64,000 nucleotides of DNA from Bacillota bacterium (GCA_011048995.1 DSCS01000064.1:7864-71863), one strand, 5' to 3'; shown: positions 13,195 through 54,925, counted from the first letter of the stretch. Program-made: numbers and translations. The notes: generated by a model not told the origin, from the letters alone.

Positions 13195-13223
13195 AATGAC
13201 TCCTCCCTTTCTAATGTGCCACC

Positions 13224-13266: not shown

Positions 13267-13291
13267 GATATTAAGCAAAAGGAGGACGATT

Positions 13292-14242: not shown

Positions 14243-14277
14243 AAGAGGCTTGCGGGAAAATCTTCCGCAAGCCTCTT
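14243..14277. terminator. Bidirectional stem-loop terminator between convergent genes
   Basis: 13-bp perfect stem AAGAGGCTTGCGG / CCGCAAGCCTCTT with a 9-nt loop. T-rich on the plus side. It overlaps the stop codon of the minus-strand gene. Confidence 0.6.
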
Positions 14278-15417: not shown

Positions 15418-16023
15418 TTACTCATCGAAATAATCCTTCAGCATCTCTTCTAACAGCTTCCGGGCTCGGAACAAACGGCTTTTGACCTGTCCGCTCGTAA
15501 GGTCCAGTTCTTCCCCGATCGTTTCATAACTTTTCCCTTCAAGAGCCGCCTTGACGATCACTTTACGATAATGCGCGGGAAGATCGTCAATGGCCTCCTC
15601 CACCGCCCGGGAGATCTCCCTGTACTCCATAGCCTCCTCCAGAGAATGCCGCTTTCCGTGCTCCATACGGTCCAGCGCCTCTTCAGAGTTCGGGACAAAG
15701 TGCCGTTTGACCAGATTCCGCAAATACATCTTCCACTCATTAGAGACAACGGTTGAAAGCCATGCGGAAAAAGATCCGTCCCCCTTATAGGTATTTATCT
15801 TATAGTATATCGTAATAAAGACGTTTTGAAAAAGCTCTTCTGCAATTTCTTCATCCCGCGCCAATTTCCGCACATGTTTCATCACAAATAATGTGTACCG
15901 GCACACTAATTCATCAAAGCTTTTCACATCTCCCTTTTGCACTTGCTGAATCAGTTTTTTTTCTTCCAGATCCTGCAGATCACGGCTTGTATTAATATTT
16001 TTCCAGAATTTCATAAACATCAC
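15418..16023 (-). CDS. ECF-type sigma-70 family RNA polymerase sigma factor
   Basis: Region 2 (FDELV.RY...V........D.E.AEEL.Q..F, SAWL) and region 4 HTH (LP..YR.V......EG.SYE.IGEELD...G.VKSRL.RAR..L). The start is ambiguous (GTG 16023, ATG 16020 or ATG 16014). It overlaps the folC 3' end. Confidence 0.88.
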   Translation of the reverse strand: MMFMKFWKNINTSRDLQDLEEKKLIQQVQKGDVKSFDELVCRYTLFVMKHVRKLARDEEIAEELFQNVFITIYYKINTYKGDGSFSAWLSTVVSNEWKMYLRNLVKRHFVPNSEEALDRMEHGKRHSLEEAMEYREISRAVEEAIDDLPAHYRKVIVKAALEGKSYETIGEELDLTSGQVKSRLFRARKLLEEMLKDYFDE

Positions 16024-24522: not shown

Positions 24523-25149
24523 TCAGTGAAGGGTAAAATTGTACGTGAAACCCCACCATACGCCAATGGGAACTCCATTGTTTTCTGCCGGTTTAAACTT
24601 TGCTTTGAGAGCGGCCCTCATCGCAGACTGATCCAGAGCCGGGGAAACACCCTTAAGCAACACGACATCTTTAACATTTCCGTCGACATCGACATAGACC
24701 TTGAGAGAAACACGGCCTTCCAGCTGTGCTTTTCGGGCCATTTCAGGATATTCCGGCATGGGTTTACTCAAAGTGACCGGAGCATTAGAATACGGAATAA
24801 AGGCATCAGGCGGAGGAATCGTTGTATCCACCGCTTTTTGATCCAAGTCAAGATCCGTATCCGCAATGGTCGCCTCTTCGTCGATTTCCTCATCAGGTTC
24901 GGCTTCTACGACCTGCTTAGGCTTCTGAATGACCTGAGGCTCCGTGGGCTCCTGAATCACTTCTGTCTGTTCGACAACATCGATGTTGACATCTCTGATC
25001 TTCTTAGGCCTGTATGGAGTAGGCTTTGGGCTGGGTATGGTCCACATCATCAGAAGCATCAGCGCAAAACTTGCAATGAGCGCTATCCGCGTAATCTGCG
25101 GAGACATGTCCTGCAGACGTCTTACATGCTGTTCTGCCATACTCATCAC
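24523..25149 (-). CDS. tonB: TonB-family energy transducer
   Basis: N-terminal TM anchor, Pro/Glu/Lys-rich spacer (PTPYRPKK..EP.EPQV.QKPKQ), and C-terminal TonB_C domain (YPE.A.....EG.V...V.V...G.V). Confidence 0.85.
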   Translation of the reverse strand: MMSMAEQHVRRLQDMSPQITRIALIASFALMLLMMWTIPSPKPTPYRPKKIRDVNIDVVEQTEVIQEPTEPQVIQKPKQVVEAEPDEEIDEEATIADTDLDLDQKAVDTTIPPPDAFIPYSNAPVTLSKPMPEYPEMARKAQLEGRVSLKVYVDVDGNVKDVVLLKGVSPALDQSAMRAALKAKFKPAENNGVPIGVWWGFTYNFTLH

Positions 25150-25568
25150 CTCCCGCCACTTTCAACATTCGCGCCCAAAACGACCCGGAGAGCCTGAGCC
25201 TCTTTCAATTCCTCAAAGACAGCATCCACGATGCCGTAACGGGCATTGCGGTCTGCTTTGATTTGAACGATCAACTCACCGTTGGTCTCAAACATCTTTT
25301 GGTCCATAAGATTGCTGACAAATTCCAAGGGGACAAATTTGTCCTCAATGGCCACTTTTCCCTGATCGGTGATCCAGATAATAGCCAAATTCTTCATTTG
25401 CAGCTTTTCAACTTTTTCAGCCAAGGGGAGTTGCAGATCGACACCGCTGTCTACCTTGAACACCGTAGTCACCATAAAGAATATGAGCAAAAGGAATGCT
25501 ATATCCGCCATAGATGAAGTCGGTATTTTGGCGTCAACGCCTTTCTTTTTTCGTTTGATAATTGCCAT
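25146..25568 (-). CDS. exbD: ExbD/TolR family protein
   Basis: 140 aa. SSMADIAFLLLIFFMVTT is the signature TM segment. Overlaps tonB by 4 nt. Confidence 0.88.
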   Translation of the reverse strand: MAIIKRKKKGVDAKIPTSSMADIAFLLLIFFMVTTVFKVDSGVDLQLPLAEKVEKLQMKNLAIIWITDQGKVAIEDKFVPLEFVSNLMDQKMFETNGELIVQIKADRNARYGIVDAVFEELKEAQALRVVLGANVESGGR

Positions 25569-25579
25569 GACTTCCCTCG

Positions 25580-25990
25580 CTATCGTTTCTTATTCACTTG
25601 TAACGAAATCTTTTTCATTCCGATTTTCTTCATTTCGTCGAAGATTCGCAACATCCAGTCATAACGGGCATTTTCATCTGTTTTGATAATAACGACCAGC
25701 TTGTCATTTTCTTTCATACGCGCTTCCACATAACCGGAAATCGTCGCCGTGTCCTGCATAAGCTGATCATCCACATAGATGTTTCCCAGACTGTTAATAA
25801 AAATCTTACACAGATTCTGTTTGGGGATCTTCGCCGAACCTTGAGCTTCTCCGGGTAACATGATAGAAAGGCCTTTATCATTAAAAAAACCGGTGGTTAC
25901 CATGAAAAAGATCAATAATAGGAATGCAATATCCGCCATGGATGAATCGGGGATATCTTCATTCGTTTTTAAACGGCTTTTCCTTAACAT
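25580..25990 (-). CDS. exbD: ExbD/TolR family protein (second copy)
   Basis: 136 aa. SSMADIAFLLLIFFMVTT and the K.D....Y..........K motif. Confidence 0.88.
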   Translation of the reverse strand: MLRKSRLKTNEDIPDSSMADIAFLLLIFFMVTTGFFNDKGLSIMLPGEAQGSAKIPKQNLCKIFINSLGNIYVDDQLMQDTATISGYVEARMKENDKLVVIIKTDENARYDWMLRIFDEMKKIGMKKISLQVNKKR

Positions 25991-26004
25991 GCGTCCCCCT
26001 TCAA

Positions 26005-26628
26005 TTATTTCGCTGCAGATTGAGTTTTCAGAATTTCAATAAATTCTCTTGTGCTTTCCTCGACACTCAAAATGATTGAAGAGACTTTAGCTGTAAAATA
26101 GTTGTAGAAAAGGTTAACAGGAATAGCAATTGCCAGACCTGAAGCTGTTGTGATCAACGCTTCTGAAATACCGGAAGCAACAACTGTCGCCTCAACACTT
26201 CCTGCCATGGCGATCGCATCAAAGGCATGGATCATCCCAAGAACAGTGCCGAGAAATCCGATCATAGGCGCGATGGTAAACCCGGTGACCAAGAAAGTCA
26301 GGTTCTTTTCCAGGAAAGCAAGCTCAGTGTTGGCTATGCTCTCAATTGATTTTTCAACTTCGACCATATTCCCGTTTGTCTGCTGGAATTTCAACAATCC
26401 GGCTCTCATAATGGAAGGCACCGGGCCGGGAGTCATCTCACACACCTCGATAGCTTCATCAACATTTCCCTGAACAAGGTGAGACTTGAATTCCACCAAG
26501 AATTTTTTTGCTGAACGTGTTGATTTGGCATAAACGATAAAACGTTCGATGATAACAAAGAGTGACATCAAAGCCACGACGGCGAGAAGATACATTACCG
26601 TTCCACCTCTTACAAAAAGTTCCATCAT
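26005..26628 (-). CDS. exbB: ExbB/MotA/TolQ family proton channel
   Basis: 207 aa, three TM segments. The conserved region APM.GFLGTV.GMI.AF and SEALITTA.GL.IAIP. Confidence 0.9.
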   Translation of the reverse strand: MMELFVRGGTVMYLLAVVALMSLFVIIERFIVYAKSTRSAKKFLVEFKSHLVQGNVDEAIEVCEMTPGPVPSIMRAGLLKFQQTNGNMVEVEKSIESIANTELAFLEKNLTFLVTGFTIAPMIGFLGTVLGMIHAFDAIAMAGSVEATVVASGISEALITTASGLAIAIPVNLFYNYFTAKVSSIILSVEESTREFIEILKTQSAAK

Positions 26629-31077: not shown

Positions 31078-32031
31078 CTACCTTAATATTTTTAGCGGAT
31101 TAATCGTTTCATTGTTAATGCGTAATTCAAAATGAAGATGCGGCCCCGTAGAACGTCCTGTAGACCCCAAAAATCCGATAATGCTGCCTTTTTCAACATA
31201 ATCGCCGTTTTTCACGCTGCACAGGCTTAAGTGTCCGTACCGGGAAGAGAATCCTCCTCCGTGGTCCAGAATCACGAGATTCCCGTATTCTCCGGCCATC
31301 CCGCTCCAAAGCACACGTCCCCGCTCTGTTGCAAAGATCGGGCTTCCCATGCTGTGGGCCAGGTCAAGACCGTTATGAAAAAAAAACTCCCCGGTCAACG
31401 GATCCCAGCGTGTCCCGTAATAGGATGTGATATGTCCTCCCCTGACAGGCCACAGGGGACGCATTCCACGGTTATAAACATATCTGTTGATCAGAGTCTC
31501 TTCCTCGGCGGAAAGAACCCAGTCCAGAGCGTCCAGTTTACGGCTGATATGAGAATAGACAGCAGAAAAAGCGTTCATATTCTTGTCATGAAAAAGAAGC
31601 CTGACTTGTTCGGCGCCTGCGCCGCCCACACTCTCCTTGTTGAAAAAAGAATCCCCCCGGAGTCGGGCCACATGAGAGACCTTGTGCTCCAGATCATTGT
31701 AGCGTTTTTCAGCCTCCCGCTGCCAATTCAAGAAGACAAAAGTCACCTTCCGCAATTCATCATGAAGAGACTCGGCATTTTTCCGTAAGGCCAAATTCTG
31801 TTTTTGAAGCCAGGAATTTTCTTCAAAGACGGGAGCCGCTTCATGTTTTAATGTCCTGTAATCGGTATACCAGATCCCGCCTAAAAACAAAAGAGCCGAA
31901 AAAAGACAGATGAAGACAATCAGTCCCAGCCTCATCCACTTGTGTTTCACCGAGAAGCGTCGGATCTCTGATGTATCTTCTCCGAGAATGATGATATGAT
32001 AGCGTTTATTGTCCATGGATACGAGACACAC
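31078..32031 (-). CDS. M23 (LytM-domain) peptidoglycan endopeptidase with N-terminal TM and coiled coil
   Basis: HNGLDLA, GYGN-like YGNLVILDHG, STGPHLHFEL. The start may be the ATG at 32016. Confidence 0.85.
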   Translation of the reverse strand: MCLVSMDNKRYHIIILGEDTSEIRRFSVKHKWMRLGLIVFICLFSALLFLGGIWYTDYRTLKHEAAPVFEENSWLQKQNLALRKNAESLHDELRKVTFVFLNWQREAEKRYNDLEHKVSHVARLRGDSFFNKESVGGAGAEQVRLLFHDKNMNAFSAVYSHISRKLDALDWVLSAEEETLINRYVYNRGMRPLWPVRGGHITSYYGTRWDPLTGEFFFHNGLDLAHSMGSPIFATERGRVLWSGMAGEYGNLVILDHGGGFSSRYGHLSLCSVKNGDYVEKGSIIGFLGSTGRSTGPHLHFELRINNETINPLKILR

Positions 32032-32947
32032 CCCTCAAGACTTTGTTTTCTTCCGGAATGAGGTATTTCAAGGGATCATCTAATTTCCCATTATGGATCA
32101 CTTCATAATGAAGATGGGTCCCTGTGCTGCGTCCGCTGTCTCCCATGGTTCCAAGATATTGCCCTTTAGATACGTACTGGCCTTTTCTGACATGGATCGA
32201 ATCCATATGCCCGTAACGGGTCTCATATCCGAAACCATGCTCGATCATTACGACATTTCCGTAAACACCAAACCAGCCCGCATAGACAACGTATCCGTTA
32301 GCTGCGGCTTTGATAGGTGTTGCCGGCATATTGGCGATATCCAGCCCTGTATGGAATTCCCTCTGTCCGTTGAAAGGCGATTTCCTCCAACCGAATTTTG
32401 AAGAAACCCACCCGTCTGCAGGCCAGATCGTAGGGACATGTTCCCATTTCTGAACACTGTTCTCCATCTTCTCAATCACACGGTAGAATCCTGTCTTTAC
32501 CAGATTCATCTTTAACTCGACTTGTGAAAAGACAATGTTGAAATCATGGGTCATGGCGCTTTCATCGGCCTGAGAGACATCCGACATATCCGAAAGCCCG
32601 ATCCCTCCCATGGAAAGGTTCTCTTTGCCCTGAAAAAGCGGGGGAAGAGAATTCAAAATCAGGACATTGTCGCAGATCTCCTGAAGTTCGACCAATTTCG
32701 CGTCAAAATCCCCTAATTTGTTTTCTAATTTCCTATAATGTGTTTTCAGATGCGTATTCTTCTCTTTAAGCAGGGCCACATGGGCTTTTTCGGAAAGATT
32801 TGCAGCAGGTCCCGCCAAATTGAGCAGGGACAGAAGAACAATTAAAAAAACTCCGATTGCAATGAACCAAAAAAGAGTAGACGGCAGGGCCACCTGAATG
32901 ACACGGCGATGAGAAGGAGGGATGATTTTAACTGTAAAATCTTTCAT
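32006..32947 (-). CDS. M23 (LytM-domain) peptidoglycan endopeptidase with N-terminal TM and coiled coil
   Basis: HTGLDIA, YGNVVMIEHG, STGTHLHYEV. ATGA overlap with the upstream SLT gene. Confidence 0.85.
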   Translation of the reverse strand: MKDFTVKIIPPSHRRVIQVALPSTLFWFIAIGVFLIVLLSLLNLAGPAANLSEKAHVALLKEKNTHLKTHYRKLENKLGDFDAKLVELQEICDNVLILNSLPPLFQGKENLSMGGIGLSDMSDVSQADESAMTHDFNIVFSQVELKMNLVKTGFYRVIEKMENSVQKWEHVPTIWPADGWVSSKFGWRKSPFNGQREFHTGLDIANMPATPIKAAANGYVVYAGWFGVYGNVVMIEHGFGYETRYGHMDSIHVRKGQYVSKGQYLGTMGDSGRSTGTHLHYEVIHNGKLDDPLKYLIPEENKVLRGVSRIHGQ

Positions 32948-33609
32948 CTTTTCTCCTTTTTATAGATCTCATTGGTAATGACCAAACCCTCCGAAGATTT
33001 CTCCACACGAAGGGGAGTGCCGGAAACTCCCCGCCCTCCCGATTCCTGAAAAAGACGAATGATCTTTTCCACATAATTGATCGTCTCCGGATAGGGAGGG
33101 ATTCCTCCATAGGTCTCAACAGCCGACGGGCCGGCATTATAAGCTGCCAAAGCAAGGCGCAGATTCCCGTTAAAACGATGATACATCAGTTTGAAATACC
33201 GCACTCCTCCGAAAATATTCTCTTCAATGTCAAAAGGATTGGAAACCCCCAGCATCCTCGCCGTATCCGGCATCAATTGCATGAGGCCCATGGCGCCGAC
33301 ACGCGACACCGCAAAGGGATGAAAGCGAGATTCGACCTGAACAATCGCCTCAACAAGCCGACGGTCCACATCATATTGCTGCGAAGCTTTACGTATCACT
33401 TCCGAAATCACATCACTTTGACCCCCGGTCTCATAATAACGGCTATACTGATACCCGGTGGCGGATATTTTTCCCCTCGGCAATGTTTCCTCTTCAGTTT
33501 CTTTTTTGATAATAGACAATTCCTGTTTCTCCCCCCGATGGATGACGATTTCTCCGTGAAGAGGCAAGACGCTGAGGCAGAAAAGCAAAACAGAAAAAAT
33601 AAATCTCAT
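32944..33609 (-). CDS. Soluble lytic transglycosylase (SLT domain) protein
   Basis: Signal peptide, VESRF.P.AVS..GAMGLMQLMP.TA and AYNAGP motifs. Confidence 0.88.
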   Translation of the reverse strand: MRFIFSVLLFCLSVLPLHGEIVIHRGEKQELSIIKKETEEETLPRGKISATGYQYSRYYETGGQSDVISEVIRKASQQYDVDRRLVEAIVQVESRFHPFAVSRVGAMGLMQLMPDTARMLGVSNPFDIEENIFGGVRYFKLMYHRFNGNLRLALAAYNAGPSAVETYGGIPPYPETINYVEKIIRLFQESGGRGVSGTPLRVEKSSEGLVITNEIYKKEKR

Positions 33610-35408
33610 TCTTCTCCTAATGCTGTGGGTTTTAACTGTCGTGTATCGGTCACAAATGCCCTGACCATCCCTTTTTGATCACCGGCAATAACCGTCCCCT
33701 CCCAAAGGCAGGGCTTCCCCTGGATAGGGCCACTCAGAGAGCCCTTCCAGACCAAGTCCCCTTTTTCTGCTGTCAGGGCATAAAGATTCCCGTCATAGCT
33801 TCCGATGTAGAGAATGCCGTCATGGACAACAGCACCGGAGCGGACAACTCCGTTCGTAGCTTTATTCCATAACACAGCCCCCGTTTTGATATCCAGGACA
33901 TATATATTCATATCCTCAGAACCAAAATAGACCGCATGATTGTCTGCGTAGATCTGTCCGGCGATTTCTTTTCCGGCGGTAAAACTCCAAAGGACCTCTC
34001 CTGTCATCCGGTTCAGGGCATATAGTTTATAATCATCACACCCGACGTAAACAGCCTCCTCCGTAACAAAAAGAGTGGAATAGATCTTGTCTCCCAAAGT
34101 CCTGGACCAAATCCGCTTTCCTGTTTTTTTGTCCAAAGCGTAAACAGTATGATCCAATGACCCGGCATAAAGCATCTCTCCCTTGATAAAGGGAGCTGTC
34201 CATACAGGGTTTTTTGTAGGATGCCGCCACACTTCCCCTCCGTCTTTCTTGCGAACAGCATAAATATAGCCATCTTCAGAACCAAAATAAATGAGCTCCT
34301 CGTCTCCGACAGCCTCAGACACGATACGTCCGCCCGTTTTGAAACGCCACTCTATCGAACCGTCTTCTTTTTTCAGCCGGTACATCAGATTTTTAAACGT
34401 TCCGATATAAAGCGCATCACTGTCAACAAGGGGAGCAGCTGCCATGCTGTAGGCCATTCTCGCTCTCCATGCAAGTTCACTCCCTTGAGCTTTATACGCG
34501 TATAAGTATTTATCTTTGGAAGCGATAAAGAGCATTTCGTCTGTTCCTACGGGAGATGCGTCAACACTTTTTCCGAATGTCTTCTCCCAGGCGATCTTAG
34601 ATTCCAACGGGAGATTCTTTTGCAAATATGTGACGGAAACGGCAGAATCTCCTTTATTCGGAGACACAGGGAGATCACGAACCGGCAAGGCAGACCCCGG
34701 AGCCCGTTGACTTTTGACAGCTCGAAAAATAAAGAGTCCCAAGAGAGCCAGAGCCGCCACTGTTCCTATGACTTTCCAGGGGATGATGATCTGCGGCGCC
34801 GAAAAATCCAATGTCAATGTCAGCACCTCGGACTGTCCCAACTGGTCTTTTTCGTGGGCCCGTTCCGCCAACTCTTTAGCCGCAACCTGAATCGTATATT
34901 CGTTTAGAATATCGGAAAAAGCTTTTTCGGTTACCGCCTCAGAAATATTTTCCGAAACCACAGCGATCTTGTCGCCGGGAGACAGGATGTACTCCCCGAA
35001 TTGCACTGTATTTTCCCAATGACACCGATCATTGCTTTCCCCATTGACATGCCATAACTCATCTTTTCGGGATAAAAAGGCTTTATATCTGTCCGAACAG
35101 GCAAAGTAGAGCCGTTTATGTGAGATGACACCGATAAAAAAATCACCTTCAGGGCTCAACTCTCTTAAGGTCAATTTGAGGGCCATGAGAATGGCCCCTT
35201 TCTCTGCCTTTTCAATATAACGGTCGATGACAGAGACAACCCATTCCTCCTGAATAAGAGGATTAGCAATGACCGAAAAGAGATATCCGAACCGGGACAT
35301 GTCTTTACGGGTATAGACATTATGATAGTGAAAATGCTTTTTTCCGAGGGTTTCTTGCTTTAACGGAGTGGACTCCCCAACGATTACCGGATATTTTGCC
35401 ATAGACAC
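33606..35408 (-). CDS. Bitopic protein: degenerate PP2C-like cytoplasmic domain - TM - periplasmic PQQ-like (BamB-type) beta-propeller
   Basis: aa ~1-195 follow PP2C block order but lack the metal-binding Asp residues. The TM helix is IGTVAALALLGLFIF. The C-terminal ~330 aa contain at least 7 repeats of the type LYA....G...W (PQQ_2-like). Confidence 0.7.
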   Translation of the reverse strand: MSMAKYPVIVGESTPLKQETLGKKHFHYHNVYTRKDMSRFGYLFSVIANPLIQEEWVVSVIDRYIEKAEKGAILMALKLTLRELSPEGDFFIGVISHKRLYFACSDRYKAFLSRKDELWHVNGESNDRCHWENTVQFGEYILSPGDKIAVVSENISEAVTEKAFSDILNEYTIQVAAKELAERAHEKDQLGQSEVLTLTLDFSAPQIIIPWKVIGTVAALALLGLFIFRAVKSQRAPGSALPVRDLPVSPNKGDSAVSVTYLQKNLPLESKIAWEKTFGKSVDASPVGTDEMLFIASKDKYLYAYKAQGSELAWRARMAYSMAAAPLVDSDALYIGTFKNLMYRLKKEDGSIEWRFKTGGRIVSEAVGDEELIYFGSEDGYIYAVRKKDGGEVWRHPTKNPVWTAPFIKGEMLYAGSLDHTVYALDKKTGKRIWSRTLGDKIYSTLFVTEEAVYVGCDDYKLYALNRMTGEVLWSFTAGKEIAGQIYADNHAVYFGSEDMNIYVLDIKTGAVLWNKATNGVVRSGAVVHDGILYIGSYDGNLYALTAEKGDLVWKGSLSGPIQGKPCLWEGTVIAGDQKGMVRAFVTDTRQLKPTALGEE

Positions 35409-35480: not shown

Positions 35481-37022
35481 ATGATATCCTTTTCTGTTGC
35501 AAAACAACACATTTTTGGTATAATCCTTTTTATGATTTCTTTTCAGTGGATATTGATTCTTCTTCAAGCTGAAGGCCTGCATGCTTCAGCTACGGGAGGG
35601 ACGGATCTTTTACGCCGTGTCCCTGATTTCTTTTCTTCGGTCCAATACTCTTTGGAAAGCCGTTTTTTGGCCCTTACCAACACGATATGGATCTCCCTTT
35701 TTATCTTTACCCTGACATTGGTCGCTCTTCTCATCCTGATCAGTTGCCGCTATCTTGATACGGTGAAATTCCGGACTCTCAGAAGTTTTTATATGGATTC
35801 CCCCTCACCTCTTATCGTTTTATTGGTCAATATTCTTGCCAGTCTTGCTTTTTTCCTGGGAGGATGGATTTTTGTTTTTTTTCTCAATATTCATAATTTA
35901 TCCAAAAAAGAACTCTATACCCTCTTGGTCTGGGCTCTTCTTATTTTTTTGCCTTTTGGCATCATCCTTTCCTCGCCGGGCTGGTTCGACGGATTGATCG
36001 CACAGACTCCGTCAGCTTTGCTAAGGGCTTATGACCGGTCGGATCTCTCGCATGTCCGCTTATACAGAGATGATCCCTTTATCCGTGAGAATCCCCTGTA
36101 TCTTTGCCTTTTGGCTCAACACAATCAATCTTCAGGAACGGCCTCCGGAAACAAACAAAATGCAGCCCTTCTTCAAAGAGCTTTATCCGGAGGATATACA
36201 TCGACAGCTGTCTATAATAATCTGGGGAACGCCATGCTGATGCTGAATTCATCTGATGCCGCTCTTTCCCATTATGACAGAGCCCTCTCGCGCGCTCCCG
36301 AAGACCCGATCGTCCTCTATAATATCTCGCAATACTATTTGTTTCGGAATGATTATGATACAGCTAAAGTCTTCTATGACAAGGCCTTCACCCTGAAAGG
36401 GCAGCTGGAACTCCCTGTCCTGGACTGGGAAAACATCATCCTGTTAGAAAAGACACTTGACCCCGATTTTGTCTGGCGTTTCTTTTTGGGCGAGACAGCT
36501 CGCCGGGAATTTCCGCAGAAAGCCTTTTCTCAGCCCCAGCTTTTCCTCTTTCCGGGAATTTCCGTTTTTCTTATTCTCCTTATTATTTTCCTCTTCCCGC
36601 TGACATCTAATTGGGCTTCATTTGTAACTTGTGAATCCTGCGGCATACCGATTATCCCCGGGTCTGCGACGTCATCCCATCAAGGCCGGATCTTTTGTTC
36701 CCGCTGCCATCTTATGCTCCCGGTTTACCTCAATCAAAAGCTGGGAAAAGATTCCATGGCGACAAAGATCGATACTTTGAAACATATACTCTTCAACCTG
36801 ATTATTCCCGGGGGCGGTTATATCTTAAAAGGACACACCCTTAAAGGCCTTTTTTGGCTTCTTCTCACAACAACGGTTCTGACTTTCAGTTTTTTTAATA
36901 AATATTTTCTCATTACTGATTATTCGCTTCTGTCTGCTTTTAACAGGACCCTGGATCTTTACCCCGCTGTCTCTTTTGTATCCACGGTGTTACTTCTCTT
37001 TTGTAAAGGACGGAAATCATGA
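35481..37022 (+). CDS. Polytopic membrane protein with central TPR repeats and a CxxC...CxxC zinc-ribbon
   Basis: 513 aa. At least 5 hydrophobic helices. TPR-like YNNLGNAMLMLNSSDAALSHYDRALSRAP / YNISQYYLFRNDYDTAKVFYDKA. CESCG-x18-CSRCH at aa 384-409. The start is uncertain (ATG 35481 or 35532). Confidence 0.6.
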   Translation: MISFSVAKQHIFGIILFMISFQWILILLQAEGLHASATGGTDLLRRVPDFFSSVQYSLESRFLALTNTIWISLFIFTLTLVALLILISCRYLDTVKFRTLRSFYMDSPSPLIVLLVNILASLAFFLGGWIFVFFLNIHNLSKKELYTLLVWALLIFLPFGIILSSPGWFDGLIAQTPSALLRAYDRSDLSHVRLYRDDPFIRENPLYLCLLAQHNQSSGTASGNKQNAALLQRALSGGYTSTAVYNNLGNAMLMLNSSDAALSHYDRALSRAPEDPIVLYNISQYYLFRNDYDTAKVFYDKAFTLKGQLELPVLDWENIILLEKTLDPDFVWRFFLGETARREFPQKAFSQPQLFLFPGISVFLILLIIFLFPLTSNWASFVTCESCGIPIIPGSATSSHQGRIFCSRCHLMLPVYLNQKLGKDSMATKIDTLKHILFNLIIPGGGYILKGHTLKGLFWLLLTTTVLTFSFFNKYFLITDYSLLSAFNRTLDLYPAVSFVSTVLLLFCKGRKS

Positions 37023-38350
37023 GCCCGCAAAGCATTCCTTTACAGTATGATACCTTTAAGAAAACAGTGGAAAATATCACCCTTCTGGAGAAGACCGGAA
37101 CCCTTGAAGTCGTCAACCGGGCCAATAGCCGCTCCTACTTTTTTTACATAAAAAAAGGAGAGATCATCTACATTGAGGAGCATCCTGTCCGTCTGGAAAA
37201 CAGGATCGGTGATTACCTCCTCAAACAGGGACTTATCAATGAGGAGCAACTCCGCCAGGCATTGGGAAAACAAAAAACGAATAAATATGAATTTTTGGGA
37301 GATCTGCTCCTGAAAGAAGGCTTTATTTCTCCCACGGAACTTCTGCAAAGCCTTACCCATCAAATTGAAAACGTTCTTTTTCTTATTTCACTTATCACCG
37401 ACGGCTTTTTTACTTTTGCTGAAGGCGATACCCCTGAAAGAATGCCTCAAATCCCTTATACGATTACTCTGAGCAATCTTCTTATGATTTTCCTCAACTC
37501 TTCTGAGATCATTGTCAAGATGCCTTTTCTGAAAGAGACCTTGAACCTGGGCTTTCAGGTGGACAAAGTCGCTGTCAACATCAACAAACTCAATCCCATG
37601 GAACAGTGGATCGTCGATGCCCTGCGCAGAGGCGCTACGGTGTTCGCTATTCTCGACCAGGCGAAAAATACCAACTACATCACCCTGATGTCTGTTATCT
37701 ACAGCCTCTATGACCGGAATATTATCAGAAACCCGGAACCCCAAGATTCTCCGGGGAAACAACCCCCTCCCCCCGGGCCTCTTCGACCGGGAAGAGAGTC
37801 TTCTTTTCCCAAGACATTCCCCGCTGACACTCCACCACCCCCAAAACTCCCGAAAGAAGAAAAAAAACGTCTTCCCTCCGAGCCCATCGAATTTGTCTAC
37901 AGGTCCGAACCGGAACCCTACCCGTCTAAACCCAAACAACAGCCCCAGCCCTCTTCTCAAAAAAATCCTGCAGAAAAGAGCCCTGCCCGGCCGGCCGCAC
38001 GACAGCCACTCCGCCAGACAAAAAAGAAAAAAACATACCGGCCCATGTCTTATGCTTTAGCGGACATTTTATCTTTTCTTGCGGTTCTTGTTTTATTGAT
38101 TCTCTATCTGGGAATGCTTCGCCCTCTGTTTAAAACTCCGGTGACGGAACACTTCCATCTCATGACACCGGAAACACTGGAAGAGGTCAAAATACAGCGC
38201 ACATTGAACATGGGAAAGACACTGACATCAGAAGAACTTCTGGAACGAAAAGACTTTTGGCAAAACTCTTTTTACTCAAAAAAAGGAGAAACCTTTTCCA
38301 GCGGTCCGGACGGAATACCCGATACCCCCGACGATTTTCGGGTCATGTAG
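37019..38350 (+). CDS. DUF4388-type protein with tandem MshEN-like c-di-GMP-binding motifs, Pro-rich linker, TM helix and C-terminal GspG-like pseudopilin module
   Basis: ATGA-coupled to the upstream gene. TGTLEV...FFYIKKGEIIY (DUF4388-like). RIGDYLLKQGLINEEQLRQALGKQ and FLGDLLLKEGFISPTELLQSLTHQ. aa 239-335 are P/K/Q-rich. TM YALADILSFLAVLVLLILYLG. C-terminal DFWQNSFYSKKGETFSSGPDGIPDTPDDF. Confidence 0.7.
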   Translation: MSPQSIPLQYDTFKKTVENITLLEKTGTLEVVNRANSRSYFFYIKKGEIIYIEEHPVRLENRIGDYLLKQGLINEEQLRQALGKQKTNKYEFLGDLLLKEGFISPTELLQSLTHQIENVLFLISLITDGFFTFAEGDTPERMPQIPYTITLSNLLMIFLNSSEIIVKMPFLKETLNLGFQVDKVAVNINKLNPMEQWIVDALRRGATVFAILDQAKNTNYITLMSVIYSLYDRNIIRNPEPQDSPGKQPPPPGPLRPGRESSFPKTFPADTPPPPKLPKEEKKRLPSEPIEFVYRSEPEPYPSKPKQQPQPSSQKNPAEKSPARPAARQPLRQTKKKKTYRPMSYALADILSFLAVLVLLILYLGMLRPLFKTPVTEHFHLMTPETLEEVKIQRTLNMGKTLTSEELLERKDFWQNSFYSKKGETFSSGPDGIPDTPDDFRVM

Positions 38351-39683
38351 GCGGCTTCTTTTCCCGATCATCTTCAATAGGGTTCATATGTCCGGCCATT
38401 TGAACGATTTCCCGTGAAAGTTTTCTTAAGCGTTCCTTCAAAATGACAGGGCAATCATAGATGCTCACGTCTTTTCCGATAATAATATCCTCTGCCAAAT
38501 CATAACAAGTGGGACATCCGCACATCCCGCAATTCAGCTGGGGGAGAAGGCGGTTGACTTCTTCGATCTTCTTCATCTTTTTCAATGCCTCCTTGATATC
38601 ACTATCCAGGGGGCTGATCGGGCGAGGCTTGAGGGGCATCCCGATCGAGCAGATTTCATCCCTGTCAAAGGGAAGGGGGATCTCGGGATTATCGGGTAGT
38701 TCTTCGGCAATCTTCTTGATCCTGTACTCTGCAATAAAAGCATCCTCTTTCGTAAAAACACCCCCGACGCAAGCATTATCACATGAATACATATCCACAA
38801 AATCAATATCCTTGACTTCTCCGTTTTCCAAACGCTCCAAAAACCTGATGGCATTCTGAATCCCATCAATGCGGAGATTGACCGATTCGTTAAACTTATT
38901 CTCCACATCGCCTAAAGCACTCCATCTGAGAGCAAATTTGGACGAAAGAATCGTTTCTTCCAATTCAAAATGCGCAAAATCTTGTTTTTCCATAATACGC
39001 CGGATCTCATTATACATGTCCCCCAGACTGAACACTCCGTTAAAGATCCGCTTCTCTTCCGCTTCAGGCTGATAGATAGCTACAACTTTGGCGGGACAGG
39101 GAGAGAGATAAAAAAGGCCTATCTCATCATCCAAAACCCCTGTTTGCTCTTTATAATTGTGTTTGATGTATTCTCCGGCGACATCCATCAAATTCCTTAA
39201 GGGAAGCAAATGATTGATCAGCGAGGGAAACTTCACCTGGATCAGCCGGACAACAGCCGGGCAATTGGTGGAGATATAGGGGCGGTATATATTTTTTCTG
39301 TCCTTAAGAAAGCTTTTTATAATATCCGAAATAATCACGCCGCCGGTGTCTACTCCTATAATATCGTCAAATCCCAATAATTTAAAAATACCCAGAATCT
39401 TTTTGACATTGTCGAATTTTCGGAATTGACCGAAAAAGACAGGAGAGTAGACTAAAAGTTTGTGTTTATATCCTGAAATCATCTCAAGGGCATCCACTTT
39501 GGCTGAAATGGCCTTCTGTGGACAGACACGCATGCATTCACCGCAATCAATGCATTTGTTTTCCAGGATAACAGCCTTCCCGTGGCGTATGCGCATGGCC
39601 TGTGTAGGGCAGACCCGGAGACAGCGTGTACACCCGTTACAACGGTTCTGATCCACATAAACAGCATGAAAATAATCGGACAT
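38343..39683 (-). CDS. [FeFe]-hydrogenase-like Fe-S protein: 2x[4Fe-4S] ferredoxin + H-cluster-type domain with altered motifs + C-terminal 'putative Fe-S cluster' domain
   Basis: CNGCTRCLRVCP and CIDCGECMRVCP. STNCPAV (vs TSCCP), SPCPAK (vs MPCxxK), MYSCDNACVGG (vs MxCxxGCxxGG). C-terminal CGMCGCPTC...DCP. Confidence 0.75.
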   Translation of the reverse strand: MSDYFHAVYVDQNRCNGCTRCLRVCPTQAMRIRHGKAVILENKCIDCGECMRVCPQKAISAKVDALEMISGYKHKLLVYSPVFFGQFRKFDNVKKILGIFKLLGFDDIIGVDTGGVIISDIIKSFLKDRKNIYRPYISTNCPAVVRLIQVKFPSLINHLLPLRNLMDVAGEYIKHNYKEQTGVLDDEIGLFYLSPCPAKVVAIYQPEAEEKRIFNGVFSLGDMYNEIRRIMEKQDFAHFELEETILSSKFALRWSALGDVENKFNESVNLRIDGIQNAIRFLERLENGEVKDIDFVDMYSCDNACVGGVFTKEDAFIAEYRIKKIAEELPDNPEIPLPFDRDEICSIGMPLKPRPISPLDSDIKEALKKMKKIEEVNRLLPQLNCGMCGCPTCYDLAEDIIIGKDVSIYDCPVILKERLRKLSREIVQMAGHMNPIEDDREKKPPT

Positions 39684-39692
39684 AATAGCTTT

Positions 39693-40136
39693 TTATCCTT
39701 TCTCAATATAAAAGGTCATCGTGACTTCCGTCCCGTTATCGATTTCACTGGCGATCTCCATCTCATCACTGTTGCGTTTCATATTCGGCAGTCCCATACC
39801 TGCTCCAAAGCCCATTTCACGCACTTCAGGACTGGCTGTCGAATACCCCTCTTCCATGGCCTTATCGATATCAGGGATTCCGGGGCCGCGATCTGTTACT
39901 ACGACTTTGACCTTAGACTCATCCATATAAAAAGCGATGGTACCACTGTAGGCATGAGCCACCACATTCAATTCTCCTTCATAGGCCGCCACAAGAACAC
40001 GGCGGATAAAGGTAGGCGGAAGCCCTAATTTTTTCAAATATTCTTTGATCATACCGGAAGATTCTCCTGCATTGAGGAAATCTCCTCCTTTGATTTTAAA
40101 GTCCATCAGCAATTCCATATCTTCGCCCCTAATCAT
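39693..40136 (-). CDS. GHKL-type ATPase, anti-sigma-factor/RsbW-like serine kinase fold
   Basis: 147 aa. N-box-like AAYEGELNVVAHA, G1 TDRGPGIPD, G2 GFGAGMGLPN. The start overlaps the upstream stop by 8 nt. Confidence 0.75.
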   Translation of the reverse strand: MIRGEDMELLMDFKIKGGDFLNAGESSGMIKEYLKKLGLPPTFIRRVLVAAYEGELNVVAHAYSGTIAFYMDESKVKVVVTDRGPGIPDIDKAMEEGYSTASPEVREMGFGAGMGLPNMKRNSDEMEIASEIDNGTEVTMTFYIEKG

Positions 40137-40680
40137 TCAATTGCAGTTCAGCCAATCCGCTTTCGATATCTTCTTCCAGAGCCCCGAGAACCTGAGGAGT
40201 ACTGAGGTCAATATCTCCCATGATTTCCCGGACGATCCGGGTATCAAACTCATATTTGTCTTTCCCTTTTTTCACCATGACATAAAGATCGATTTCGGGA
40301 TGTCCCACAATCAGCGAAATAATCGTGTCTGTCATATTCCCTAAAGGCGGACGGTCAATATGGGAAAGCTTCATGGTCACAGTGACCCGGGTATATGATC
40401 CCTTTTCTGACATAATGGAAAAACCGCCGTCACAAGCCTCTGCGGTCTGAATGAAAAGAGGAATTCCCAGCCCCCACCCTTTGCCTTTTTTTGTGGAAAA
40501 CAACGGGTCCATGGCTTTTCCAATCATCTCTGTATCCATTCCTTTCCCGTTATCCACAACAGTGATCGTAATGGTATCGTTTTGTGTATCAATATCGATA
40601 AATAAATCCAAATGCCAGGCTCCTGCGGCAATGCCGTTTTCCATGATATCCATAATATGCATAGAAAGTTCAGGCATCAT
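40129..40680 (-). CDS. GHKL-type ATPase domain protein with a ~90-aa C-terminal extension
   Basis: MDIMENGIAAGA (N-box), VVDNGKGM (G1), GWGLGIPL (G2). The ATG at 40680/40677 overlaps the PHP gene stop. The track ORF start at 40794 lies inside the PHP gene. Confidence 0.7.
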   Translation of the reverse strand: MMPELSMHIMDIMENGIAAGAWHLDLFIDIDTQNDTITITVVDNGKGMDTEMIGKAMDPLFSTKKGKGWGLGIPLFIQTAEACDGGFSIMSEKGSYTRVTVTMKLSHIDRPPLGNMTDTIISLIVGHPEIDLYVMVKKGKDKYEFDTRIVREIMGDIDLSTPQVLGALEEDIESGLAELQLND

Positions 40681-41407
40681 AGCAGACTCCCCGGCCTTCT
40701 CTGCCTTGTAATGCCATGCGAAACTCTTCAAAGGAAGGTGTTTGCATCTTATATGTTGTAAAAGCGCATCCGACATCTTCCAAAAGATGGGCATCCGAAT
40801 TGGTCACAAAGGGCCAGTGCCCGTATCGGGCATATTTTTTTCTGGCCTGCTCCAGAGACAGATGCCGGGAGATCTCGATCCCGTCGATCTTCGAATCCGA
40901 AGGGATAAATCCCAATTGGGAGATCACACTGTAGGAATCCCTGTCAATGTGTGAAAAAAGCACAACGCCGCCCCGGCCATGCACCTCTTCAATGATTTCT
41001 TCCATTTCCATTTCAACCGATTGCAAAAGTAATTTATCCTCCATTTTGATAATCCGGTCTTCGGCATCTACAACGACCTGATCTCCAAAATATTCCGGAT
41101 TATTTGGAATATCAGGCAGATAGCTGTAAAGAAAATCCCCCATGGCTTCGGCCTTTTCTCGGTTTCCGAAAAGCGTCAGCAAATGAGTTTCCGAAGCGCT
41201 CTGTATTTCCAACCCGAAAAAAAGGGCGATTTTTTCCAGGGCCGCATCCTCCAAAGCCTTCAAATTCCCCGCGCTGTTATGGTCTGCAAGAGCAATAATA
41301 TCCATTTTCTTTTCAAGGGCCTTTTTCACAATCGCCGCGGGGGACATATCCAGCCCCCCGCAAGGCGATAAAACAGAATGAATATGAAGGTCGGCCTTCA
41401 GGTACAT
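40670..41407 (-). CDS. PHP-domain metal-dependent phosphoesterase
   Basis: ADLHIHSVLSPCG, LADHNS, FSHIDR and NSDAH: the four His/Asp-rich PHP motifs. Confidence 0.85.
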   Translation of the reverse strand: MYLKADLHIHSVLSPCGGLDMSPAAIVKKALEKKMDIIALADHNSAGNLKALEDAALEKIALFFGLEIQSASETHLLTLFGNREKAEAMGDFLYSYLPDIPNNPEYFGDQVVVDAEDRIIKMEDKLLLQSVEMEMEEIIEEVHGRGGVVLFSHIDRDSYSVISQLGFIPSDSKIDGIEISRHLSLEQARKKYARYGHWPFVTNSDAHLLEDVGCAFTTYKMQTPSFEEFRMALQGREGRGVCYDA

Positions 41408-41740
41408 CTACTTCACAGAAGGGTAAAGCAAGCCGGCGCAGGTGAAGGCGTCCTTTTCCGTGGCAAAAAGAGGAACGCCGACTTTTTCGGCCGCTTCCAC
41501 AAGCCCGGCCTCCGGCTCCACGCCGTTCACCACTACGATCCCCGCGATATCTTTAGCTGTCGCGACTGCAATCACATTTTTATGACGTTGAATGGTAAAC
41601 CAAAGGCATCCGCTGCAGGCATGGGCCAGGACATCACTCAACAGATCCCCGGCGTAGCCTCCCTGAATCTCTGTTTTTTCCCATTCACACTGTGTCAGGG
41701 GTTTCAACCCCAGTTTATCAGCAGCCTCTTTTAAAGTCAT
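41408..41740 (-). CDS. DRTGG-domain protein
   Basis: 110 aa. GDLLSDVLA, then a nucleotide-binding-like fold I.AV.TAKDIAGIVVVNG and GVPLFAT. It abuts the PHP gene with no intergenic nucleotides. Confidence 0.75.
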   Translation of the reverse strand: MTLKEAADKLGLKPLTQCEWEKTEIQGGYAGDLLSDVLAHACSGCLWFTIQRHKNVIAVATAKDIAGIVVVNGVEPEAGLVEAAEKVGVPLFATEKDAFTCAGLLYPSVK

Positions 41741-41743
41741 CCT

Positions 41744-42112
41744 CTACACCTCACTTGCAGGGCGGTTCTTACACGGGCGTATGCCGTTTTTGTAAAGAAT
41801 GCCGCTTGTTTCAAACATGGTCTTTTTCGTTACGATCATCGGGATATTGAGCCTTTTACGCGCGACTTCCATAACATCATCCGAAGGCTGTTTCCCCCGG
41901 ATGAAGATAATGGCTGTAATCCCTAAAATTTCCGCTACGCGAATGACCTGCAGGGTCACCGTGCCGGTAATCAGTAAAGTATCGCCCTCTGTCAACGCCA
42001 GGACATCGCTCAACAGATCCGCACTGTACGCAGATGAGATCTCAATCTCCAGGTCATGTTCTCCGGCGATCACTTCCCCATCCAGCAAGTCAATTATTTC
42101 CTTGATCTTCAT
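41744..42112 (-). CDS. DRTGG-domain protein
   Basis: 122 aa. ADLLSDVLA, LLITG, ITAIIFIRG, NIPMIVT. Confidence 0.78.
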   Translation of the reverse strand: MKIKEIIDLLDGEVIAGEHDLEIEISSAYSADLLSDVLALTEGDTLLITGTVTLQVIRVAEILGITAIIFIRGKQPSDDVMEVARKRLNIPMIVTKKTMFETSGILYKNGIRPCKNRPASEV

Positions 42113-47736: not shown

Positions 47737-48790
47737 CCCGGAAAAATCCTTTCATCATCATATCTTCGCCAACCTTTTGCCATGACGTCTCAAGCAGCTT
47801 CCGGGCCTGTTCAATGGAAGCAAAACCTTTCTCCCCTGAAGGGGAAAGCCCTCCTCCCAGCAGTTTGGGCGCGATGAAAACGACGACTTCATCGACAGCA
47901 TCTGCTTCAAACATCCTGTGGATCGTAAAGCTTCCCCCTTCCACAAGAAGCGAGGTCACCCCTTCTTTCCATAAGACTTCATAAAAAGCCGCCCGGAAAG
48001 CGGCAGGGTCCTTTGGGAGAGTATAATTTCTAAACCCTTCTCTATCAAGGTATTTTTCCCCTTCTGTAAGAATAAGAGCCTCTCCGCTCAAAGGATGCGA
48101 ATGCCCGATGAGATCACCCCTGGGATCATAAACGACCTTACGGGGCTGCCATCCTTCAGGGTCAACCCGGGCCGTAAGCCGGGGTTTATCCTGTATTACC
48201 GTTCCCGCTCCCACCATAATCCCTTTGACGTTATGGCGGATCAGATGGACTTCTTTGCGGCTTTCCTCACAAGAGATCCAGCGTGAATCACCGTTACAGG
48301 AGGCAATGTATCCGTCTGCAGTCATCGCATATTTAAGAATAACATAAGGCTCTTTGTCGAGAATATTTTTAATGAAGACCCGATTCATCTTCCGTGCTTT
48401 CTTCTCCTGAAAGCCCGCTTGCACCAGGACTCCGGCCTCTTTCAGGCGCCGCAATCCCTGTCCGGAAACCAACGGGTTCGGATCCTTCATGGCTGCATAG
48501 ACTGCTTTGACTTTCTTTTGAATGATCAATTCTGTACAGGGCGGGGTCTTTCCGTAATGATTACAGGGCTCCAATGTCACATAGAGTTCACACCCTTCTG
48601 CTAAGTGGCTGTCTATGGACAAAGCCTGAACCTCGGCATGAGGCCCGCCGAAAGAGTCATGATAGCCTTCTCCTATGATCCGCCCCTCCTTCACAGCCAC
48701 TGCTCCCACATAAGGATTAGGCTGTACAGCGCCATCCCCCCGGGCAGCTAACGCGAAGGCCCGTTTCATAAACAAGGGGTTATACGACAC
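47717..48790 (-). CDS. ribD: Bifunctional diaminohydroxyphosphoribosylaminopyrimidine deaminase / 5-amino-6-(5-phosphoribosylamino)uracil reductase
   Basis: NP.VGAV, HAE..A, TLEPC.H.GKTPPC (CMP/dCMP deaminase zinc motif), and a C-terminal RibD_C reductase domain. Confidence 0.93.
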   Translation of the reverse strand: MSYNPLFMKRAFALAARGDGAVQPNPYVGAVAVKEGRIIGEGYHDSFGGPHAEVQALSIDSHLAEGCELYVTLEPCNHYGKTPPCTELIIQKKVKAVYAAMKDPNPLVSGQGLRRLKEAGVLVQAGFQEKKARKMNRVFIKNILDKEPYVILKYAMTADGYIASCNGDSRWISCEESRKEVHLIRHNVKGIMVGAGTVIQDKPRLTARVDPEGWQPRKVVYDPRGDLIGHSHPLSGEALILTEGEKYLDREGFRNYTLPKDPAAFRAAFYEVLWKEGVTSLLVEGGSFTIHRMFEADAVDEVVVFIAPKLLGGGLSPSGEKGFASIEQARKLLETSWQKVGEDMMMKGFFRDVYRTH

Positions 48791-49904
48791 CGGTCAGCCT
48801 CCTGAATTCGTCCAGGGCGAACCGGTCAGTCATGCCGGCAATATAATCCGCAATGGCCCGCCGGGAAGATGAAAGGGACATCTCCTTTTGATAACGCTCA
48901 GGAAGAATGTTCGGATAGCGTCCATAAAGAGAGAAAAGGGTTTCAATGCAACCTTCCGCACTGATGCGCATGCGCTCCACACGAGGATGATTATAGAGAT
49001 GCGTAAAAAGATACTCCTTGAGCTGGCTTCTTTTCATGTCCATTTCCGGACTAAAACCGACAACGCGTATGTTCTTATCCTTGACAGTTTCAGGAGTCCG
49101 CACCTTTTCTACGGTGATCCGTCCTAATGTCGACTCCACCAAGTCATTGATAAAAAAAGCGATCAACGTGCTGATCGTCCTGTATTTCAAGACTTTTGGA
49201 GACAATCCCGCTCCCTCTCCCTCGACGGCGTCATTCAAGGCTTCCTCCCAAATCTGCACTTCTCCGAGTTTCTCCCACTCTAAAAGGCCTGACTCCAGGC
49301 CGTCATCCAGGTCGTGATTAAGATAAGCGATTTCATCGGCATAATCAATGAGTTGTCCTTCAATTGTCGGGACAACATCCAAATCAAAGATATCCTCCAG
49401 ATCTTTTGTTGAAGGTTTGTCATAAGGAGTGGAATGCTTGATGATTCCCTCCAAAGTCTCATAGGAAAGATTCAGCCCTTTAAATCCTCCGTACCGCTCT
49501 TCCAGATAGGTGACGATGCGGTAGCTTTGTCGGTTATGCTCAAATCCTCCGGCACCATCCATAAGACGGTTAAGCACCTTTTCTCCCGTATGCCCGAAAG
49601 GGGTATGCCCCAGGTCATGGGCCAAAGCAATGGCTTCTACCAGCTCAATGTTCAGCCCCAGGCGCTTGGCCATACTTCTTGCAATCTGAGAGACCTCCAT
49701 GGTATGGGTAAGACGGGTGCGGTAATAATCCCCTTCGTGATTGACAAAGACCTGCGTCTTATATTCCAATTTCCGGAATGCTTCACAGTGAATGATCCGA
49801 TCACGGTCTCGTTCATAGATCCCCCGGTTATCGTGAAATATTTCTTTATTCAACCGTCCGCGGCTTTTTTCATCTTTCATCGCATAATTTGCATATAATT
49901 CCAT
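48780..49904 (-). CDS. dgt: dGTPase-like HD-domain deoxynucleoside triphosphate triphosphohydrolase
   Basis: F.RDRDRI.H..AFR.L..KTQVF, TRLTH..EV.QI.R and HDLGH.PFGH motifs. The ATG at 49904 follows AGGAAGGAGG. Confidence 0.85.
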   Translation of the reverse strand: MELYANYAMKDEKSRGRLNKEIFHDNRGIYERDRDRIIHCEAFRKLEYKTQVFVNHEGDYYRTRLTHTMEVSQIARSMAKRLGLNIELVEAIALAHDLGHTPFGHTGEKVLNRLMDGAGGFEHNRQSYRIVTYLEERYGGFKGLNLSYETLEGIIKHSTPYDKPSTKDLEDIFDLDVVPTIEGQLIDYADEIAYLNHDLDDGLESGLLEWEKLGEVQIWEEALNDAVEGEGAGLSPKVLKYRTISTLIAFFINDLVESTLGRITVEKVRTPETVKDKNIRVVGFSPEMDMKRSQLKEYLFTHLYNHPRVERMRISAEGCIETLFSLYGRYPNILPERYQKEMSLSSSRRAIADYIAGMTDRFALDEFRRLTGVV

Positions 49905-49977
49905 AGTTAGCCTCCTTCCTGAGGATAACATACCCCCTTTTGTTTTGCAATGATTTCTCGATTTTCCTTGACATTAA

Positions 49978-54676: not shown

Positions 54677-54744
54677 GGCTGAATAATAACAGGGCGAAAA
54701 AAAAAGACAAGTTTTCATTGACCCTTTTTATCAAAGGCTTATAC

Positions 54745-54895
54745 TTTCATCGTTCAGAAGGGAAACGGGTGAGAATCCCGTGCTGCCCCGCAACTGTAAA
54801 CGGAACGAAAACCCGGACGAAGCCACTGTGTGTGATACACGGGAAGGCGGGCAAGTAGGCAGCCGTAAGCCAGGACACCCAATGAACAGAGGCTA
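54745..54895 (+). promoter_or_regulatory. Cobalamin (B12) riboswitch
   Basis: AAGGGAAACGGGTGAGAATCCCGTGCTGCCCCGCAACTGTAA core, GCCACTG....GGGAAGGC element, and B12-box AGCCAGGACACC. It sits directly upstream of a TonB-dependent receptor. The boundaries are approximate. Confidence 0.9.
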
Positions 54896-54925
54896 TCACA
54901 TTGAACCAACTCGAGGGGGTTGACT

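Follow-up and report, generated by a model that had tools for sequence, protein, structure and literature searches.

In a 64,000-nucleotide stretch of DNA from a Bacillota bacterium (GCA_011048995.1 DSCS01000064.1:7864-71863), referred to here as the window, one gene codes for a PATAN (DUF4388/PatA_N) protein, which we read as bitopic in the inner membrane and as coming from a Candidatus Mcinerneyibacteriota bacterium (Table 1). The helical insertion in its PATAN domain is, on the evidence of sequence and of a predicted structure, a complete and well-preserved MshEN_N module, a four-helix bundle of two 24-residue hairpins of the kind seen in MshE in complex with cyclic di-GMP (c-di-GMP). This leads us to lean toward binding of c-di-GMP by the protein.

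An MshEN_N module within a PATAN domain

An earlier note on this DNA had recognized two tandem MshEN motifs in this gene, and its placement of them is exact, with residue 62 starting at 37202 and residue 115 ending at 37363, as is its reading of a six-residue spacer (KTNKYE) between them. The fit to the published motif is less simple than it had described. For the first motif, the claimed match to every fixed position holds for the relaxed search pattern of the authors of the motif, whereas the literal formula of their abstract (RLG...) is missed, position 2 being Ile and not Leu. For the second, the claim that all positions fit except the first Arg is right about position 1 (Phe92), but position 11 is also Phe and lies outside the (L/V/I) of the abstract formula; the MshE of Vibrio cholerae likewise has Phe at position 11 of motif 2. 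When both motifs are scored with the extended consensus (R/K/L)LGxx(LVI)(LVI)xxG(LVIF)(LVI)xxxxLxxxLxxQ, which has 11 key positions per motif, 21 of the 22 are kept in the protein and in its close orthologues, and an alignment of the latter shows motif 2 to be the most invariant stretch of the whole protein.

Moreover, the NCBIfam model NF053729 ("cyclic di-GMP-binding domain, MshE-related") matches with 51.5 bits against a curated cutoff of 38, residues 62-115 being aligned to model positions 1-53 of 53, and the best match among PDB sequences in a phmmer search is MshE (PDB code: 5HTL, E = 2.6e-8), motif aligned to motif. The MshE-style pattern is confined to these two sites when all six frames of the window are scanned, with about 2e-5 single occurrences expected by composition. 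A chance occurrence of the motif is rejected by these three results. The spacer has six residues against five in MshE; in the 118 related PATAN inserts described below it ranges from 4 to 7, five being the commonest length followed by six, and homologues of PilB and PilF align with longer ones. A five-residue spacer is probably not a strict feature of the MshEN_N module.

At the level of whole domains, the 443-residue protein matches PF14332 (DUF4388/PatA_N/PATAN; 62.7 bits, E = 4.3e-17, for a gathering score of 25) and no Pfam family beyond it, while T2SSE_N (PF05157) and T2SSE give zero matches even at E <= 10. Of the profile models that the earlier note had proposed as a check, those for DUF4388 (PF14332) and the MshEN motif (NF053729) are matched and T2SSE_N is not, and no secretion ATPase is attached, as had been stated. 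The protein has just the 53-residue MshEN_N subdomain; MshEN_C (N1E) and the ATPase are absent, and the bundle leads into PATAN strands.

The full-length AlphaFold2 (AF2) model, built from a 10-sequence alignment, has a mean predicted local distance difference test score (pLDDT) of 69.5, and of about 80 over residues 1-235. In this model, the strands of residues 27-55 are followed by helices at 63-69, 75-87, 93-99 and 105-124, a strand at 129-135 and a helical subdomain that reaches residue 232, so that the insertion sits between PATAN beta-strands; a disordered segment (242-341), a transmembrane (TM) helix (343-371) and a small helix-plus-hairpin head complete the chain. A comparison of the full-length model with the PDB by Foldseek gives nothing significant, with a best E of about 0.9. 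For the separately modeled fragment of residues 56-122 (pLDDT 81.7), the best structural match is c-di-GMP-bound MshE (PDB code: 5HTL), with a TMq of 0.77, a root mean square deviation (rmsd) of 1.1 Å and 45% identity, followed by c-di-GMP complexes of PilF GSPII-B at an rmsd of 0.6-0.9 Å. The fragment is thus predicted to fold like the c-di-GMP-bound forms of MshE and PilF.

Compared with V. cholerae MshE and with PilF GSPII-B of T. thermophilus (PDB code: 8PDK), the insertion shares the two tandem 24-residue helix-turn-helix motifs arranged as a four-helix bundle, the same hydrophobic triads, with the G-D pairs and the Gln that ends each motif, and a predicted fold that superposes at about 1 Å; with PilF GSPII-B it also shares a hydrophobic residue that opens motif 2. 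In contrast to both, the module is nested inside another domain instead of lying N-terminal to a secretion ATPase, and it comes without MshEN_C/N1E. These comparisons, together with PF14332 and NF053729, establish the motifs as MshEN_N homologues inside a DUF4388 protein, as the earlier note had proposed.

Probable ligand binding and competing roles of the insertion

The window protein keeps all the positions described as contacting the ligand in MshE, namely the backbone G-D pairs, the two hydrophobic triads, and the turn glycine and terminal glutamine of each motif. The only deviation is Phe at position 1 of motif 2, a residue not seen there in the characterized binders. This residue would be tolerable, because PilF GSPII-B, a nanomolar binder (dissociation constant, KD, 6 nM), has Leu196 at the equivalent position. 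In that protein, the L196R replacement makes binding 4-fold weaker and K167L, at position 1 of motif 1, tightens the KD to 2 nM; its authors widen the consensus to (R/K/L) and conclude that binding is favored when position 1 holds a large hydrophobic residue (PMC11731258). Also, an isolated MshEN_N of 62 residues suffices for c-di-GMP binding (PMC5013675).

From these features we infer the following mode of binding and output. The inserted bundle would bind a single c-di-GMP monomer in the manner of MshE and PilF, with each guanine resting on a hydrophobic triad (I63/L108/L112 and L93/L78/L82) and capped by R62 or F92, the guanine edge being read by main-chain amides (G64/D65 and G94/D95), and the ribose-phosphate being held by Q85 and Q115. 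Binding of the ligand could rigidify the insertion, or change how it is oriented toward the PATAN sheet and the helical subdomain that follows, and would in this way alter protein-protein contacts at the membrane, for which the likeliest partner would be the co-translated membrane protein with tetratricopeptide repeats (TPR) and a zinc ribbon described below. The disordered linker and the single TM helix would tether this sensor to a small GspG-like periplasmic head, which might bind calcium, or dock to or sense an envelope structure.

Several points weigh against binding. Among the papers searched, none gives a test or an explicit claim of c-di-GMP binding by a PATAN insertion. Homologues of MshEN, even with a near-consensus motif, may fail to bind because of their context, as do XpsE (PMC5013675) and PilF GSPII-A (PMC12002112), the site of the latter being blocked by an extended helix 1; in the AF2 model of the window protein, residues 58-60, just ahead of motif 1, have low confidence. 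Moreover, in the more distant orthologues of the M. aminivorans type (L007, L009, P0021 and P0014), motif 2 keeps 5-7 of the 11 key residues, with Q changed to K and the turn Gly lost, and two other orthologues (P0008 and P0009) lack the turn Gly of motif 1. This indicates that ligand binding is not conserved across the orthologous group.

A different role for the insertion, which we regard as possible though doubtful, is that of a structural or protein-protein interaction module, as in the original "alpha-clip" idea, homologous to MshEN_N but free of c-di-GMP like XpsE, PilF GSPII-A and the PilB of P. aeruginosa, in a protein that would serve as scaffold of an envelope complex with its TPR partner. 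That such non-binding homologues are documented (PMC5013675, PMC12002112) and that motif 2 has decayed in distant orthologues keeping the same gene pair would agree with this role, as would the protein contacts by which PATAN domains act in cyanobacteria (Han et al., bioRxiv 10.1101/2021.06.11.447907). Nonetheless, the clade of the window protein keeps every ligand-contacting position, with motif 2 as its most invariant stretch, and the known non-binders carry several disruptive substitutions (for example, G11V, L29R, G40L and Q61V in XpsE; PMC5013675), none of which is present here.

The absence of c-di-GMP turnover genes from the window and from all the fetched loci would also suit an interaction module. 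A Pfam scan of essentially all the long open reading frames (ORFs) of the window found no GGDEF, EAL, HD-GYP or PilZ gene, nor any gene of a type II secretion system (T2SS) or type IV pilus (T4P), and a signature regex run on the window and the fetched loci agrees with it in finding no turnover gene, so that the statement of the earlier note on GGDEF, EAL and HD-GYP genes is correct. At a typical density of about 4 turnover genes per Mb (quoted in PMC12943098), about 0.3 would be expected in 64 kb, and the absence of a cyclase from the window is therefore uninformative about the genome.

Binding of another cyclic dinucleotide, for example 3'3'-cyclic GMP-AMP (3'3'-cGAMP), instead of c-di-GMP is very improbable in our judgment; PMC5013675 describes weaker binding of cGAMP by V. 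cholerae MshEN, and the aromatic Phe92 cap is unlike that of known binders, but each motif retains the G-D pair by which guanine O6/N7 is read (G64/D65 and G94/D95), which argues for two guanines.

As an observation in its own right, a single orthologous gene pair includes both an intact motif 2 (10/11, clade of the window) and a decayed one (5-7 of 11, the terminal Gln having become Lys; M. aminivorans clade: L007 5968-7107, L009 2368-3507 and P0021), and offers a natural contrast between a putative binder and a putative non-binder.

The insertion as a trait of the PATAN family

According to a passage of Han et al. (bioRxiv 10.1101/2021.06.11.447907) that cites Makarova 2006, the PATAN insertion consists of two repeats of two antiparallel helices (the "alpha-clip"), and the same repeats also open the N-termini of T2SS/T4P ATPases (GspE/PilB). 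The window protein belongs to the same family as PixG, PixE and PilG of Synechocystis and PatA of Anabaena and has its two-repeat helical insertion at the same position. In contrast to these cyanobacterial proteins, it has no REC domain, it is membrane-anchored with an extracytoplasmic head, and the MshE-type consensus is much better preserved. Also, the motif region falls within the DUF4388 model of Pfam, residues 2-43 of the fragment (about residues 60-101 of the protein) being aligned to model positions 49-88.

Run exhaustively, a phmmer search with residues 1-235 retrieved 1643 representatives of 50%-identity clusters at E <= 1e-3, and the best 150 of these plus six other close orthologues were analyzed (156 proteins). 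The PATAN domain aligned contiguously across the insertion in 102 of the 156, and in 47 the MshEN_N part alone was matched. Among 118 non-orthologous PATAN domains with an insert, a sample enriched by similarity to the query, both motifs keep at least 10 of the 11 key positions in 14, at least 9 in a further 25 and at least 8 in a further 32; only one motif reaches at least 9 in 33, and 14 are weak. NF053729 is matched by 68 of 69 related PATAN proteins at E <= 1e-5. In a word-indexed protein database, a profile search with the N-terminal alignment gave only 3 weak matches, and the 63-residue fragment used as query gave zero.

The motifs inside DUF4388 are therefore the usual alpha-clip of PATAN domains, which in this protein is very MshE-like. 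Their presence there is a trait already known for the family and does not amount to the new effector architecture that had been predicted; what appears undescribed is their joining to a membrane anchor and a pseudopilin-like head, and with it the membrane-anchored, pseudopilin-tailed subfamily and its TPR partner. In Wang et al. 2016, the Synechocystis PATAN regulators are not among the listed MshEN proteins, and the sole DUF4388 architecture is MshEN-HD-GYP-REC-DUF4388, with the two domains far apart. The window protein resembles their MshEN_N-only proteins (Bd2402, REC-MshEN_N-UNK; EpsG, MshEN_N-AAA_31; NfrB, GT2-MshEN) in joining the 53-residue module, which serves there as a portable sensor of c-di-GMP, to a non-ATPase output, and it gives weak matches to the models of NfrB and EpsG, whereas none of the architectures in that work nests the module in PATAN or joins it to a pseudopilin-like domain. 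With respect to output, Synechocystis PATAN domains bind the membrane machinery PilB1 and PilC (Han et al., bioRxiv 10.1101/2021.06.11.447907).

We tentatively raise the hypothesis, less probable than binding by the window protein itself, that PATAN alpha-clips are genuine sensors of c-di-GMP where the MshE-type consensus is preserved, and that the present subfamily couples sensing in the cytoplasm, through the TM helix, to a pseudopilin-like head in the periplasm and a TPR/zinc-ribbon partner. If this were so, PATAN proteins, of which several thousand are in databases, would be a large overlooked class of c-di-GMP effectors, where the known receptors are too few for the many cyclases in bacterial genomes, and a transmembrane c-di-GMP output device of a kind not described would add a membrane-spanning type to the effectors. 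For the window itself, the outcome is mainly the annotation of a hypothetical protein from a poorly known candidate phylum and the definition of a conserved two-gene membrane module.

Membrane anchor, partner gene and neighborhood

Table 1. Features of the PATAN gene and of its upstream partner (window coordinates; H, helix; E, strand).
Feature	Coordinates	Strand	Details or basis
Gene for PATAN/DUF4388 protein with MshEN_N insertion, TM helix and GspG-like end	37019..38350	+	443 aa
PATAN core, N-terminal part, aa 10-57: one helix and three beta-strands ahead of the insertion	37046..37189	+	Pfam PF14332; AF2 H10-22, E27-33, E38-45, E48-55
MshEN_N motif 1, aa 62-85, RIGDYLLKQGLINEEQLRQALGKQ	37202..37273	+	11/11 key positions of extended consensus
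Spacer KTNKYE, aa 86-91, 6 residues	37274..37291	+	
MshEN_N motif 2, aa 92-115, FLGDLLLKEGFISPTELLQSLTHQ	37292..37363	+	10/11 key positions; position 1 = Phe
PATAN core, C-terminal part, aa 116-150: end of helix 4, strand 129-135, invariant PxRMPQIPYTITLS	37364..37468	+	AF2; orthologue alignment
Helical subdomain, aa 151-235, common to many PATAN relatives	37469..37723	+	AF2 helices 151-232; relatives align to aa ~235
Pro/Lys-rich disordered linker, aa 236-341, basic KKKK patch at its end	37724..38041	+	pLDDT <50 over aa 242-341
Single TM helix, aa 342-371	38042..38131	+	Hydropathy scan; AF2 helix 343-371
Small extracytoplasmic GspG-like head, aa 372-443	38132..38347	+	Profile search against PDB sequences
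Upstream partner gene: polytopic membrane protein of 513 aa, TPR repeats plus CxxC...CxxC zinc ribbon	35481..37022	+	Overlaps PATAN gene by 4 nt

The helical subdomain that follows the PATAN core is possibly winged-helix-like, with weak TrmB matches in relatives, and the linker after it varies in length and sequence among orthologues. Because a basic KKKK patch, which would lie on the cytoplasmic side, precedes the hydrophobic helix, the topology would be N-in/C-out with a single TM helix. The last ~75 residues finish in a segment conserved in orthologues, D-x-W ... S-S-G-P-D-G-I-P-D-T-P-D-D; it includes D412-x-W414 and a C-terminal loop S-x-G-x-D-G-x-x-D-T-x-D-D (residues 427-439, 38297-38335), which resembles the calcium site of GspG. 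A profile of the orthologues has GspG (PDB code: 3G20) as best match among PDB sequences, with E = 0.022. For a profile of the broader family, the top four matches are all GspG (PDB codes: 3G20, 29jd, 5wda and 1t92), with marginal E values of 0.0033, 0.011, 0.031 and 0.78, and the fifth is PilA; in this search, one alignment covers helix and head, with the similarity concentrated on DPWG...GPDG..DT.DD. Pfam T2SSG (PF08334) has no match on the C-terminus of the window protein at E <= 10 and stays below its cutoff of 21 bits in two relatives of the same overall architecture (17.6 bits in P0096 and 16.6 in P0127).

A comparison with GspG of T2SS (PDB codes: 3G20, 1T92 and 5WDA) shows in common a hydrophobic helix followed by a small head, the D-P-W-G ... 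S-x-G-P-D-G-x-x-D-T-x-D-D loop of which may correspond to the region of the calcium site. In contrast to GspG, the head is much shorter, a prepilin-peptidase site and a Pfam T2SSG match are absent, a cytoplasmic domain of 340 residues lies ahead of the helix, and no T2SS genes are nearby. On this sequence likeness, "pseudopilin-like end", the term used in the earlier note for the periplasmic part of a membrane-anchored protein, seems a reasonable, if weakly supported, description, and the anchoring itself agrees with the single C-terminal TM helix. The same order of PATAN domain with MshEN_N insertion, helical subdomain, linker, TM helix and GspG-like head is found in four cluster representatives (P0014, P0021, P0047 and P0058), and with longer heads in four others (P0096, P0127, P0101 and P0146).

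A true prepilin-like segment, cleaved by prepilin peptidase so that the cytoplasmic sensor is freed from an assembling pseudopilin, is highly unlikely: the head is GspG-like and the helix starts in a pilin-like manner in relatives (G-NVLAE in P0047, PG-TYALVE in P0002), but the window protein has no class III signal peptide, its helix start RPMSYALADILSF lacking Gly at -1 (RPMSYALAD), P0008 and P0009 have Arg or Lys in place of the acidic residue, the leader of ~340 residues would be unprecedented, and no T2SS, T4P or peptidase gene is nearby.

The PATAN gene is translationally coupled to the upstream gene, with 4 nt (ATGA) shared by its ATG and the stop codon of the latter, and a Shine-Dalgarno-like AAGGA lies 5' of the PATAN gene. 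Two antisense ORFs (37040-37363 and 37388-37960) were rejected as genes, being unsupported and contained within a conserved coding frame. The gene pair is kept in L001, L002, L007, L008 and L009 at 23-38% identity, also where the flanking genes differ, and the 4-nt overlap is repeated in L001, L002 and L009. The homologues whose source is named come from metagenome-assembled genomes (MAGs) of Candidatus Mcinerneyibacteriota, and the pair is conserved across this phylum. Moreover, PATAN is fused to TPR repeats in 11 of 69 relatives and also in P0157; together with the conserved pair, these fusions support a functional link between the PATAN and the TPR/zinc-ribbon genes. A related-locus search with a narrower alignment gave 8 loci, of which seven, in MAGs, carry the gene or a relative (two of them Mcinerneyibacteriota) and one is a motif-only match in a Desulfobulbus MAG. 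Literature searched on Mcinerneyibacteriota/LCP-89 yielded nothing on c-di-GMP or pili.

A five-gene cluster on the opposite strand (38343-42112, -), syntenic in L001 and L002, is convergent with the PATAN gene and overlaps it by 8 nt at its 3' end; it resembles a sensory hydrogenase-like signaling module, with an [FeFe]-hydrogenase-like Fe-S protein (Fe_hyd_lg_C, Fer4, FeS), two HATPase_c proteins, a PHP-domain protein and a DRTGG protein. On the other side, four envelope genes (31078-35408, -) are divergent from the PATAN operon and are followed by SecA; they encode a 600-residue membrane protein with a PQQ/BamB-like beta-propeller, an SLT lytic transglycosylase and two M23 peptidases, and their synteny extends to L001 and L002 and not to L007-L009.

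Elsewhere in the window, the HD-domain gene at 48780-49931 was considered as HD-GYP and rejected, its HD plus HD_assoc composition being read as deoxynucleoside triphosphatase (dNTPase)-like. Two small adjacent proteins with cNMP-binding domains lie beside a 572-residue SpoIIE/PP2C-type phosphatase (4342-6978, -), and these genes may form a cyclic-nucleotide-linked partner-switching module. Three tandem paralogous M42 glutamyl-aminopeptidase genes (10122-13347, -) are adjoined by a sigma-54 activator-type AAA+ protein (9123-10091) in which no receiver domain was matched. An extracytoplasmic function (ECF) sigma factor gene (15418-16023), two FecR-domain genes (14277-14996 and 7736-8533) and an ExbB-ExbD-ExbD-TonB gene set (24523-26628, -) are also present. 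Finally, a cobalamin riboswitch (Rfam RF00174, 87 bits; 54714-54898, +) lies directly 5' of a TonB-dependent receptor gene (54920-56866, +) with Plug and beta-barrel domains, in a BtuB-like arrangement.

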